Part shown: positions 20,188 to 22,964 of the stretch, piece after piece
Position numbering within the stretch: the first letter of the stretch is position 1
How the letters are laid out: every line of letters starts with the position of its first letter
Virus record (IMG/VR): IMGVR_UViG_3300047089_000323
Span: 1-55,425 of that record
Source: a virus
Taxonomy: Duplodnaviria; Caudoviricetes
DNA: 55,425 bases
Strand: one strand, 5' to 3'
Notes under the pieces: generated by a model
Told to the model about the DNA's origin: nothing
The model's database searches: none
Seen by the model: only the letters and a program-made list of their open reading frames with translations
Made by a program: the position numbers and the translations under genes

Positions 20188-20450
20188 GGGGTGTCTTCGA
20201 GCTTACGCAGTCGATCCTGCACGCCGACCATCCAACGGTGGATCGCCTGCAATTCGGTTAGGACGTCGGTCAGCGTGTGATCGACCCGCATGGCCAGGGA
20301 CGAGGACACCCGCATGTCGTCGTTCAATCGCTGCACGTCGCGTTGCAGGACGGTGATGCCTTTGGCAAGCACCGGAATGCCTTCCACCAAAGGAAGTATG
20401 GCGTCGAGCTTGCGATTGATGGCGTCGAGATCGACCGGGGTGTCAGGCAT
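20184..20450 (-). CDS. coiled-coil hypothetical protein
   Basis: 88 aa with heptad pattern; similar to 38072-38395. Confidence 0.7.
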   Translation of the reverse strand: MPDTPVDLDAINRKLDAILPLVEGIPVLAKGITVLQRDVQRLNDDMRVSSSLAMRVDHTLTDVLTELQAIHRWMVGVQDRLRKLEDTP

Positions 20451-21291
20451 GGGCGGTTCTCTTAGGTCGTCCGATTTGTTTTTTTGAGGAACGTAAAAAT
20501 CCGCAATAACGACAGCCCTGCCCCCGATACATTAGTCTTTGGACTGTGGGTGTTCCCGTATAATCGTGCTTCGAACAATACACCGTCACACGCCCATCCA
20601 CGGCTCCTGGCTTGCTAGGTGGTCCAATCTCCTGGCATTCCCAGCCAAGTTCTTTGGTTTTGGCGCGGATGTTTTCAGGCGTATTTTTACGACCACGCCG
20701 ATCCCAAATCTGATTTGTTATTTCACTCTGACGCTTTCCCGCTCCGGGTTTACTCCAACGCACCGTGCGTGCGGTTTCACCGTTGTCGATTCCTTTCATC
20801 TTTGCTGATTGCTCAGCGCGTTTCTCAGATGTCCATGCCTTACGCATGGAATTTACCCGCTCCGCTTTTTTTACTGGATCGGCCCAATTCGCCTTGGACC
20901 CTTCGGCGATACGCGCGATTTGTGCTGCACGTAGATCAGGGTTAGCGGCAAGATACTGTCTTACAGATACGGAATGCGCAGCACGCTCTTCTTTGGTTTT
21001 TCGCAGTCCTTTATTCGTATCGGCGCGAAGCCGAATATTGTAGCGAGGTTTGAGGAAATCTATCCAAAATTGTTCACGTGCTTCGAGAAGCTCCGGAGAG
21101 CACTCTTCAAGAATGCCAGACGTGAATCCTACGCCGTCGTATTTTGCCCACGCTTGCGAAAGCCGCAAGGAATGGTGGCGCTTCTTACGAAGGTGGGAAA
21201 AATGAACCCGCTGCCGCAGTTCGATCTTTTCTGAAGATCCAACATACAGTTTGCCACTGGGGCTTTTGATGAAATAGATGCCACACGTCAT
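20443..21291 (-). CDS. free-standing GIY-YIG homing endonuclease
   Basis: MTCGIYFIKSPSGKLYVGSS...R...H...E.E motifs, NUMOD3-like basic repeats, C-terminal CSKH...GQGCRYC zinc module. Confidence 0.9.
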   Translation of the reverse strand: MTCGIYFIKSPSGKLYVGSSEKIELRQRVHFSHLRKKRHHSLRLSQAWAKYDGVGFTSGILEECSPELLEAREQFWIDFLKPRYNIRLRADTNKGLRKTKEERAAHSVSVRQYLAANPDLRAAQIARIAEGSKANWADPVKKAERVNSMRKAWTSEKRAEQSAKMKGIDNGETARTVRWSKPGAGKRQSEITNQIWDRRGRKNTPENIRAKTKELGWECQEIGPPSKPGAVDGRVTVYCSKHDYTGTPTVQRLMYRGQGCRYCGFLRSSKKQIGRPKRTAHA

Positions 21292-21370: not shown

Positions 21371-22964
21371 TCAGCCAGAAATCACTTGACTTTGGACGAG
21401 CGCGGTCCCGTCGACTACCTGGTATCCGTAGACTTGTACCGAATGTTATCTAGCCGGCTCTTTATCCGGCCTTCTGCAAATTTCTTTGCAGCGCAGACTA
21501 TATCTTCCTGCTTGCGCAGGCTCCGCGCTCGTGGGCCGTTCATCCGGTCTGGATTACTAGACCTAGTCGTTGAACCTTCTTCCTGTTCCCAGGAAGCTTG
21601 GCTGCTGATTACCCAATCCGAAATGTTTTCCAACCATCGCATCTGTCGTTACCAACTACGCTGTGGTCACTTCGGCTCTCAGGGCGTTCCAGCAATTCAC
21701 GGAGTTTAACGAGAGCCTTAATGTAGAGTTGTCGACCCTCGCAGGATTTGGCCGAATGTTAGTTCGGATCTGAGCGTCTCCAATTTTGAAATCTGACTGG
21801 CAAAAGTGATCCCGTGAGCATGGCCAGCGAAGATCGGCTGCTCGCCGGCCGCGAAGTTAGTCGAGTCCGACGTGTTCGAGGGCAGCAGGTTGCTGATATA
21901 CAAAGTGAACCTGTCCACCATTCCGAGCCTGCCATTGCGCAGCATCGATACCGAATCGCCGGACAAGTAAGCCTGCCGCAGTTCCGACTGCTTGAGCATG
22001 CGTCCCGCCCACGATGGCATGACGATCCAGCGTCCAACCTCTGGGATGTTGGTCTCATCGAGACACTGGCCCATGCGCAGGATCAGGTCGATCAGGTTGA
22101 CCTGTCCTGTCGTTGCGCCCTGCCCGACCACCGTGACCGGCGTGCCTTTGACGCCCAGGTTCAAGTTGGCCGAGATCGCACCGGCGGTCGCTCCTTTATT
22201 TGCGGCGTTGGCTTGGCCGACGATGCCGCCGAGCACGTCCTTGTCGACGGTGATCTTGAGCTGCTGGGCAGCATCATCACTCCACATGCTCAGGATGTTC
22301 AGATCAGACTGCACCTCCATGACGTCATCGAGGATCAGGCTGAAATACTTTCCGTTGCCGATAAACAACTCGACAGAACCGCCAGTTGGCCGGTCGAGTC
22401 CGAGAAGGCCATCGGCCTTGTAGTCACGGATCGTGATCGAAGGCTTCGTGCGAATTCGCACACGATCGCCCATGTTTTGGATTTCCAATTTCTTCGCCGA
22501 TAGGGCTCTTTATCCCTACCTTCCTGCAAGTTTCCTTGCAGATGAGACTATCTCATCACCCTTTGCGGGGCCGGGCGCTCGTGGGCGGCTTATCGTTTCC
22601 TCACCGCCTAGTCGTTGAACCTTCCATCGCCCTGGGGCTCTCGCCTTACATCGATGGCTTGGCTGCTGATTGTCTCCGCCACACTCGGTCAGAGGTCCCA
22701 GCAATTCACCCGGTTTAACGAAGGCTAATCCGTCAACCCTCGTAGTCGGTATTGCTGATCGCGCTGAGCACTGTCGAAGCGTAAAATTTCTCGATCAGTT
22801 TCGCTGACCAGATCTCCATTCAACACCGACTCACATCCCCAAGATCACCACTTGGCAGGGATGAACCCCGTCGTTTGGAGGTTGTTCGGCGTGCTGCCGA
22901 CCGGCGTGAGGACTGGTACTGATCCGGACGTTGCGCCCGGAAAACCTGCACTAGGGATAGGCAT
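21371..22964 (-). CDS. major capsid protein, spliced: join of 22964-22857, 22816-22736, 22485-21735, 21438-21371 (335 aa)
   Basis: Exons total 1008 nt and give one frame: ...GFIP|EIWSAKLIEKFY...DYEG|EIQNMGDRVRIR...QILRG L|QVYGYQVVD...; these are recognisable HK97/P22-type coat motifs; follows the scaffold gene; AGAGGGA SD. Confidence 0.9.
21439..21734 (-). ncRNA. group I intron (296 nt, no ORF), capsid intron 3
   Basis: 5' exon ends in U; IGS GCUCUCG pairs CGAGGGU; P GAAUUGCUGGAA, Q AAUCAGCAG, R GUUCAACGACUAG, S AAGAUAUAGUC; P3 CUCCG/CGGAG; GAAA-loop P9; ends in G. Confidence 0.92.
22486..22735 (-). ncRNA. group I intron (250 nt, no ORF), capsid intron 2
   Basis: Exon ACGAGGGU pairs IGS GCCUUCGU; P GAAUUGCUGGGA, Q AAUCAGCAG, R GUUCAACGACUAG, S GAGAUAGUC; P3 CCGGG/CCCGG; ends in G. 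Confidence 0.92.
22817..22856 (-). other. 40-nt core-less group I-like mini-intron, capsid intron 1
   Basis: GCCAAGUGGUGAUCUUGGGGAUGUGAGUCGGUGUUGAAUG sits between CCU and GAG; carries an in-frame stop and a frameshift; P1 and P10 pairings; terminal G. Confidence 0.75.

Follow-up and report, generated by a model that had tools for sequence, protein, structure and literature searches.

In the virus record IMGVR_UViG_3300047089_000323 of the IMG/VR database (Caudoviricetes), the major capsid gene is interrupted by an insertion of only 40 nucleotides (nt) that carries the splice-site signals of a group I intron without a catalytic core. We found that the 3' half of this insertion pairs with the following exon, directly beside the first helix (P1) of the next, complete group I intron (intron 2), and that this pairing is kept, with changes on both sides, in related loci. 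On the comparative evidence presented here, the insertion is probably a non-autonomous, core-less group I mini-intron, tethered beside intron 2 and processed by its ribozyme. The window, as we call the whole stretch analysed, is this one linear record of 55,425 bases, estimated to be 88% complete. All positions refer to it, and the capsid gene lies on its minus strand. Loci and contigs of relatives are labelled with L-numbers (L002, L003, L176 and so on).

A 40-nt insertion with group I splice-site signals

The longest piece of the capsid gene matches capsid proteins in 61 phage records, the closest being four Rhizobium phages with 64.8% identity. In Rhizobium phage RHph_TM3_14A the gene is uninterrupted and encodes 328 amino acids. 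The window gene is exactly colinear with this protein but for three insertions, of 40 nt (22856-22817) between ..GFIP and EIWS.., of 250 nt (22735-22486) after ..DYEG and of 296 nt (21734-21439) after ..ILRG. Across the first of these sites the intact homologue reads ..GFIPEIWSGKL.. without interruption. Exon 1 (22857-22964, 36 codons ending in ..TTGFIP) was delimited by translation and is colinear with residues 1-31 of the RHph_TM3_14A protein, while 24 of the 27 residues of exon 2 (22736-22816, EIWS..DYEG) are identical to residues 32-58 of the intact homologue.

The mini-intron (M, 22817-22856) is thus an exact 40-nt insertion relative to intact homologues. The last bases of exon 1, CAUCCCU (22857-22863, splice after U22857), form the exon strand of its P1 and pair with the internal guide sequence (IGS) GGGGAUG at 22834-22840. 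Just 5' of the IGS lies GAUCUU (22841-22846), whose conserved role is that of the P10 strand, pairing with the first six bases of exon 2 (22816-22811). The insertion ends with the terminal G (omega-G) at 22817. We found no catalytic core P3-P9 with the G-binding site of P7 in the 40 nt; the P1 loop, P10, the IGS, the tether strand described below and short spacers use all of them, the insert folds without a further helix, and it has no Rfam match of its own. Since the catalytic core is lacking, the 40-nt insert is not a self-sufficient group I intron. A CCAAG/CUUGG hairpin, to which the first-pass annotation of the window had also given a pairing role, is present there, but by eye it is confined to this lineage among the distinct inserts described next and is not conserved.

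Pattern scans of IMG/VR and of JGI/ENA metagenome contigs revealed 26 distinct loci whose capsid gene has an insert of 34-43 nt at the same FIP/EIW site. Each of the 26 inserts forms a P1 with a U.G wobble, contains a P10 strand and ends in G, and none has room for a catalytic core. The scan pattern forced the preceding U but not this final G, which is nevertheless the last base in 26/26. The insert length leaves a remainder of 0 on division by three in 8 loci, of 1 in 6 and of 2 in 12, and the frame of exon 1 reaches a stop codon 0-9 nt into the insert in every locus.

The pairs of P1 and P10 were counted in a MAFFT alignment (A2; 22 distinct rows, 286 cells), which misaligned the tether strands and was therefore used for these two helices only. 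Both helices are strongly kept, with 99.0% of the 286 cells paired, three pairs changed on both sides and a covariation score that none of 500 shuffles reached; when the partners were slid against each other, pairing fell to 26-61%. All seven pairs of P1 (CAUCCCU with GGGGAUG in the window) hold in the 22 distinct relatives. The pair farthest from the splice site (C22863-G22834 in the window) occurs as CG in 11 rows, UA in 7 and UG in 4, whereas the pair at the splice site is UG in 22/22. The P10 helix is 97.7% paired in the relatives and includes two pairs changed on both sides.

Exon 1 is under purifying selection. Among insert-bearing relatives its open reading frame (ORF) is kept and the proportion of synonymous differences (pS) lies above that of nonsynonymous differences (pN), with a pS of 0.34 and a pN of 0.013 between the window and L178, and a pS of 0.62 and a pN of 0.20 for a second clade when pooled; the comparisons with L186 are unreliable due to an indel. 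Moreover, an identical copy of the 40 nt was found in a second contig (L002/L096).

The tether helix in the window

The first-pass annotation had claimed a helix of 11 base pairs (bp) between the mini-intron and exon 2, abutting the P1 exon strand of intron 2, and both parts of this claim were confirmed. On the minus strand, the tether strand T of the mini-intron, AGUCGGUGUUG (22831-22821), is the reverse complement of its target in exon 2, CAAUACCGACU (22754-22744), apart from the pair G22824.U22751, and the helix is present in the minimum free energy (MFE) and centroid folds. Between the end of the target and the 5' splice site of intron 2 lie 8 nt, exactly as many as the P1 exon strand ACGAGGGU (22743-22736) comprises, so that the gap between CAAUACCGACU and ACGAGGGU is zero. 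This exon strand pairs with GCCUUCGU (22725-22718) to form the P1 of intron 2, with a U.G wobble at the 5' splice site and a hairpin in all folds. A suggested extension of the tether helix to 13 bp with a bulge can be drawn, but it needs G22834, the last base of the IGS, and A22743/C22742, the first bases of the P1 of intron 2, and competes with both P1 helices; it was not counted.

When the 17-nt 3' half of the insert was searched against the 81 nt of exon 2, shuffling the insert half gave a helix at least as good 80 times in 20,000, and shuffling the exon did so 65 times in 20,000. Taken alone, the helix in the window is therefore modestly unlikely, with a frequency of about 0.4% by chance. 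Its exact placement against P1 is a further coincidence of about 1 in 70, according to our own arithmetic.

The MFE and centroid folds of stretches of 155, 171 and 391 nt all hold the tether helix, with the P1 hairpin of intron 2 directly next to it. The z-scores of these folds are -3.4, -3.3 and -3.95, respectively, and no shuffle folded as well. In the 155-nt fold the mini-intron P1, the tether and the P1 of intron 2 lie side by side, and the remainder of exon 2 forms its own hairpin inside the tether loop. The tether loops out 57 nt of exon 2 (window 22755-22810, minus strand), which adopt this hairpin in both the MFE and the centroid fold. The hairpin draws the 3' splice site of the mini-intron near to the tether, and the same is seen in L176 and L178.

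Conservation and retargeting of the tether

Whether homologous mini-inserts keep their complementarity to exon 2 had been named in advance as decisive for the tether, and they do so in all 26 loci, 23 with a micro-exon, in which the core pairs are kept to 100%, and three with a long exon. In the 23 micro-exon loci the complete intron begins only 21-24 nt into exon 2 and leaves a micro-exon encoding EIWSDEI/V, EIWSAKLV or EIWSGKLI, which, judged from homologues, is needed. In all of them the 3' half of the insert pairs with micro-exon bases 8-13.

Tether pairs of the micro-exon loci were counted in an alignment of 20 distinct rows (A3), which was anchored 5 nt before the GACC/CTCC motif. This anchoring was chosen with the helix in mind and leans towards it, a bias that is addressed by controls with slid and shuffled partners and by a swap test. 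In this alignment 92.9% of the cells are paired, the six core pairs are paired in 100%, and three core pairs have changed on both sides. The covariation that the first-pass annotation had proposed to look for in relatives was found, with a score of 0.411 compared to 0.097 in shuffles (0/500 as high, 20 rows). Covariation was hence observed in all three helices, P1, P10 and the tether. At the third base of the Ser codon the pair is CG in 7 rows, UA in 7, GC in 3, AU in 2 and UG in 1. In three rows Ser is encoded by AGY and not by TCN, and the insert there shows the matching switch from GA to CU. Sliding the partners reduced pairing to 13-45%. In the swap test each insert matched the hexamer of its own exon (23/23), compared to 10 matches in 115 comparisons with the hexamers of other classes. 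G.U pairs are present in P1, P10 and the tether, which fits pairing in the sense RNA and not a DNA repeat.

In the three long-exon loci the downstream intron begins at nt 81 of exon 2 (the window, after DYEG), nt 75 (L176, after TDY) and nt 72 (L178, after NTD), and it matches RF00028 with 72.6, 83.1 and 73.2 bits, respectively. The tether strands of these loci differ in sequence and their guides are 10-11 nt long. An unbiased search of the whole exon nevertheless placed the target in all three so that it ends exactly at the P1 strand, which is ACGAGGGU in the window, CGACUAU in L176 and (A)UACGGAU in L178. Each of these helices was matched by 65-168 of 20,000 shuffles, and a guide placed on the exon of another locus ended 2-16 nt from the splice site.

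The same order is seen in the MFE and centroid folds of all five relatives examined in this way (L176, L178 and three micro-exon loci), namely the mini-intron P1, a linker of 1-7 nt, the tether and the P1 of the downstream intron, with no base between the last two. An automatic finder of P1 and tether put the target 0-2 nt from the downstream P1 in 23/26 loci; the P1 of L176 was set by hand and confirmed by the fold. For L095 and L186 the ungapped search favoured another match of 6 bp, while the anchored alignment gives the same core with a U.G pair. The tether thus follows the P1 of the downstream intron and not the mini-intron's own splice site. Conserved complementarity and retargeted guides are what a selected cis-acting tether predicts.

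The proposed helper introns downstream

Downstream of every one of the 26 mini-inserts, at a distance of 21-81 nt, lies a full intron whose insertion opens with a P1 hairpin. In the window this is intron 2 (22486-22735), an ORF-less intron of 250 nt and the proposed helper ribozyme. It matches RF00028 with 72.6 bits (E 1.5e-16), which is above the Rfam gathering score of 50 bits; its boundaries follow from the colinearity of its exons with the homologue (DYEG/EIQN), U22736 precedes it and G22486 is its last base, as expected of a group I intron. Helpers at or above the gathering score are also present in L111, L176, L178 and L162, and those of L142, L143 and L172 lie below it with 38-41 bits (E <= 3e-6).

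The mini-intron was never seen without a helper in the 26 loci. Among IMG/VR contigs with an intron 21-24 nt into exon 2, 16/16 carry a mini-insert, 10 with the SDE micro-exon and 6 with AKLV/GKLI. The same intron type also occurs without a mini-insert, since in L018 and L021 it lies at the TDY site (75 nt in, 64.4 bits) and exons 1 and 2 are contiguous; the helper is therefore autonomous and does not need the mini-intron. That the intron 21-24 nt into exon 2 (L142-L173, L094-L127) is always accompanied by a mini-insert suggests that the pair moves or is inherited as a unit; co-conversion during homing would be one such route.

A second, compact intron type, measuring about 155-160 nt and without an ORF in L094 (3309-3468), was noticed among the helpers (also L095, L155, L186 and L217) and among full introns at the FIP/EIW site (L003, L010-L014). 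It obeys the exon-U/intron-G and P1 rules and hosts LAGLIDADG genes, but RF00028 misses it at E <= 0.01 (best score 17.2 bits, in L003). It may represent a small subclass of group I introns that the model covers insufficiently. In this group of phages the capsid genes are crowded with introns, as in L094 (7,067 nt), L095 and L178; that of L094 contains the mini-insert, the micro-exon and at least four further insertions, two of which match RF00028 at 80 bits.

Descent from a full-size intron

Among the 80 best IMG/VR loci, 73 of 79 informative relatives have contiguous exons 1 and 2, and L002 carries the identical 40 nt. The five others have large inserts at exactly the same site, of 302 nt in L003, 686 nt in L010-L012 and 687 nt in L014. 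These follow the same ..AUCCCU and end in G, and four of them (L010-L014) have the identical IGS GGGGAUG; in L003 it reads GGGGAUA, with a C-to-U change in the exon that compensates for the G-to-A change in the guide. The L010 insert, the one tested, encodes a LAGLIDADG ORF. The 302-nt intron of L003 gives a weak full-length match to RF00028 (17.2 bits, E 0.036).

The mini-insert of L217 aligns with the first approximately 42 nt of the full intron, with 30/35 bases identical by our count, and its tether strand corresponds to the 5' strand of P3 and to J3/4 of the full intron. Full-size introns at this site thus share with the mini-intron the site, the P1 exon strand, the IGS, the P10 logic and the terminal G. 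They differ in having a core (the weak RF00028 match), in L010 a LAGLIDADG ORF, and no significant complementarity of their 3' ends to exon 2, where 926-1729 of 5000 shuffles were as good. The mini-intron is thus a deletion derivative of a real group I intron that kept the 5' 25-40 nt and the terminal G.

The first-pass annotation had opposed a selected cis-acting mechanism to deletion debris. Selection is supported by a tether that is kept, covaries and is retargeted, but the choice itself was a false one, as the insert is a deletion derivative that was later kept and adapted.

Proposed mechanism and alternative explanations

The mini-intron keeps only the substrate elements of a group I intron, namely P1 with its U.G wobble, the adjacent P10 strand and the terminal G, and it has gained a guide of 6-11 nt, the tether. 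The exon 2 target of this guide lies directly 5' of the P1 exon strand that belongs to the next complete group I intron. Three consecutive helices result, the mini-intron P1, the tether and the P1 of intron 2, without a base between the last two, and the mini-intron P1 thereby hangs where the P1 of intron 2 itself joins the core. We propose that the core of intron 2 docks the mini-intron P1 and performs both transesterifications, first with exogenous G and next with the mini-intron's own terminal G, while P10 aligns exon 2; afterwards it would dock its own P1 and splice itself. The mini-intron would have to leave before intron 2, because the helper departs once intron 2 is spliced; this order, already predicted by the first-pass annotation, is a requirement of the model and not an observation. 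The anatomy, its conservation, the covariation, the retargeting of the tether and the co-occurrence with a helper are observations, and the chemistry, the use of the intron 2 core and the splicing order are inferred.

Several points weigh against this proposal. Removal of the insert is deduced from conservation only, and all sequences come from metagenome assemblies. The insert regions of the window and of L146 had no match in cultured phages (blastn in distant mode against a phage collection), and a pattern scan of genome contigs gave 12 stretches, none of them (0/12) in a capsid context. In a micro-exon of 21-24 nt the P10 target, the tether target and the P1 strand fill the exon, so that abutment is nearly forced and the positional argument rests on the three long-exon loci of related phages. 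Four compact helpers of the second type (L094, L095, L155 and L217) have no RF00028 match at E <= 0.01, and L094 has none at E <= 10; that they are ribozymes is deduced from a by-eye reading of P3-P9, the splice-site rules and the LAGLIDADG ORF in L095. The strict co-occurrence of mini-intron and helper could reflect co-conversion or common descent and not functional dependence. Finally, the last 4-6 bases of mini-intron and helper, compared by eye in 8 loci, show no obvious similarity, which a shared P9.0 contact might have produced.

Removal by a group I ribozyme would also be conceivable if the helix did not tether the mini-intron to the core of intron 2 but defined its 3' splice site or prevented skipping of exon 2; the catalyst would then act in trans and might be intron 3, excised intron 2 or some other group I ribozyme free in the infected cell. 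The window does contain two similar RF00028 introns, both the 3' splice site and the P10 target lie within the loop of the helix, and skipping of exons between adjacent phage group I introns has been described for Twort (PMC3073962). We consider this unlikely, however, since a marker of the 3' site would be expected near that site, as in the micro-exons, and not 55-63 nt away, and since the helix ends exactly at the helper P1 in 3/3 long-exon loci despite many other exon positions; a ribozyme acting in trans leaves this tracking unexplained. Self-splicing with the help of flanking exon structure, as claimed for the degenerate Phialophora ribosomal DNA (rDNA) group I introns of 63-75 nt, appears decidedly unlikely for inserts in which P1, P10 and the tether are the only helices and P7 is missing. 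The 67-nt PaSSU intron (P1, P7, P10 and a helix termed PM) was reported to splice in vitro only with about 300 nt of exon (PMC3160393). None of the 26 phage inserts (0/26) lacks a full intron within 81 nt, and the tether follows the P1 of that intron.

Other readings would leave the insert in the messenger RNA. Exon 1 could encode a separate short peptide and the capsid protein could restart at the ATG 22819-22817 by termination-reinitiation, being split or shortened at its N-terminus. The window has a TGA and then this ATG directly before exon 2, and an ATG or TTG is found there in 13/26 loci; in the other 13 the insert offers no start codon in frame with exon 2, and restart was rejected as a general explanation on this ground. 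It would also leave the conserved U.G wobble, the terminal G, P10 and the covarying tether unexplained, and the helper intron must be spliced in any case, so that we regard it as very unlikely. A ribosomal hop over the 40 nt recalls the bypass in T4 gene 60, which uses matched take-off and landing codons, a stop codon directly after take-off, a nascent-peptide signal and a take-off hairpin. As in gene 60, a short untranslated gap would interrupt an essential phage gene, and in the window UGG 22850-22848, followed by UGA, could serve for take-off and UGG 22810-22808 for landing, with a GGAG shortly before the landing codon and the take-off codon in the loop of the CCAAG/CUUGG hairpin. The product would read ..FIPAKWSAKL.., but homologues conserve EIW and not AKW, and further UGG triplets lie inside the gap at 22841-22839 and 22818-22816. 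Matched codons occur in only 2/26 loci, the second of which (L172) lands two codons before exon 2, in contrast to the group I splice-site signals present in 26/26; bypass was rejected as a property of the family and seems highly improbable for the window. A last reading takes the insert for an assembly artefact or for dead debris in a defective phage, with complementarity due to chance; it would be in line with data taken entirely from metagenome assemblies and with a shuffle frequency of only about 0.4% for the single helix. This reading is already contradicted by the pairing of P1 and P10, the covariation of the tether and the pS and pN of exon 1, and with 26 distinct variants showing compensatory changes, intact exon 1 ORFs and an identical copy in a second contig we consider it extremely improbable.

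Further features of the capsid region

Exon 3 (21735-22485) was delimited by colinearity with the homologue and is followed by intron 3 (21439-21734), a group I intron of 296 nt that matches RF00028 with 72.5 bits. Exon 4 with the stop codon (21371-21438) continues with (L)QVYGYQVV.. and matches the C-terminus of the homologue. All of these lie on the minus strand. Introns 2 and 3 contain no ORF. A free-standing GIY-YIG endonuclease gene (20443-21291, minus strand; Pfam PF01541, E 2.4e-8) starts about 80 nt past the capsid stop codon. At different sites of the capsid gene, namely 22736-22743 and 21735-21742 in the window and the micro-exons of the L143 type, related RF00028-type introns come after exon words that resemble each other (ACGAGGGU, GCGAGGGU, ACGAGAUU), which fits the spread of a single intron lineage to sites matching its guide.

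Comparison with known systems

The closest natural precedent for self-splicing of such small introns is given by the degenerate group I introns (63-75 nt) in the small subunit (SSU) rDNA of the fungus Phialophora (Harris and Rogers 2011, PMC3160393). The PaSSU introns are very short, keep P1 and P10 but have lost most of the core, form a helix between intron and 3' exon (PM) and need flanking RNA. P1, P10 and a helix between intron and 3' exon are all present in the phage inserts as well. However, introns of the PaSSU type keep P7 and reside in ribosomal RNA; they have no tie to an intron next to them, their self-splicing in vitro has been reported, and the last base of PaSSU is U. At 34-43 nt the phage inserts are shorter, have no P7-like helix, end in G in 26/26 and interrupt a protein-coding gene; their exon helix abuts the P1 of a complete intron, and a full intron lies within 81 nt in 26/26.

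Amini, Olson and Muller (2014, PMC4094466) engineered a Tetrahymena spliceozyme that acts on a separate RNA and cuts a core-less intron out of it. As in the arrangement proposed here, one group I core excises a core-less intron and joins the exons, with base-paired guides marking the splice sites, which shows that such a reaction is feasible for a group I core. The spliceozyme differs in being engineered, in acting in trans and in carrying the guides on the ribozyme (P1, a P1 extension and P9.2 in trans), whereas the mini-intron holds its own IGS and a separate guide would anchor it in cis beside the P1 of the helper.

A gene of Staphylococcus phage Twort contains three group I introns and shows exon skipping (PMC3073962; Landthaler and Shub 1999, cited there and in PMC11878797). 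Twort resembles the window in having several group I introns in one phage gene, and its splice products imply that a core can use the splice site of a neighbour. In Twort every intron is a complete ribozyme and exon skipping occurs as a by-product, while here one partner is core-less and cross-use would be obligatory. A core-less group I mini-intron beside a helper intron in phages was not described in the literature searched, which left most subscription journals and supplements outside its coverage.

Significance

At least five helper positions and two helper intron types were seen among the loci. A further, tentative and rather doubtful idea is that mini-inserts are distinct, evolving 'satellite' introns, cassettes of about 35 nt (P1, P10, a terminal G and a rewritable guide of about 10 nt) that would be served by a downstream ribozyme and switch helper by rewriting the guide. 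They might persist because the mini-insert occupies, and so would protect, the target site of the homing endonuclease of the full intron, and because it would make loss of the helper intron lethal. Such elements could represent a step towards introns that are served by a shared catalytic RNA.

Gene callers will mis-annotate capsid genes of this kind as truncated or frameshifted. The rules, consisting of P1, P10, the terminal G and a guide abutting the helper P1, are simple enough for direct testing and for reuse in the design of cis-acting splicing cassettes.

Group I introns are defined by carrying their own ribozyme, whereas the mini-insert family has only the substrate half, and this in an essential and highly expressed phage gene. 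Loss of the core and dependence on a shared one have long been proposed for group II introns and the spliceosome. If the core of the neighbour excises the mini-introns, two introns would be served by a single ribozyme core in nature, as in engineered spliceozymes, and the mini-intron would be a living example of an intron without its own catalytic core that depends on a shared one.

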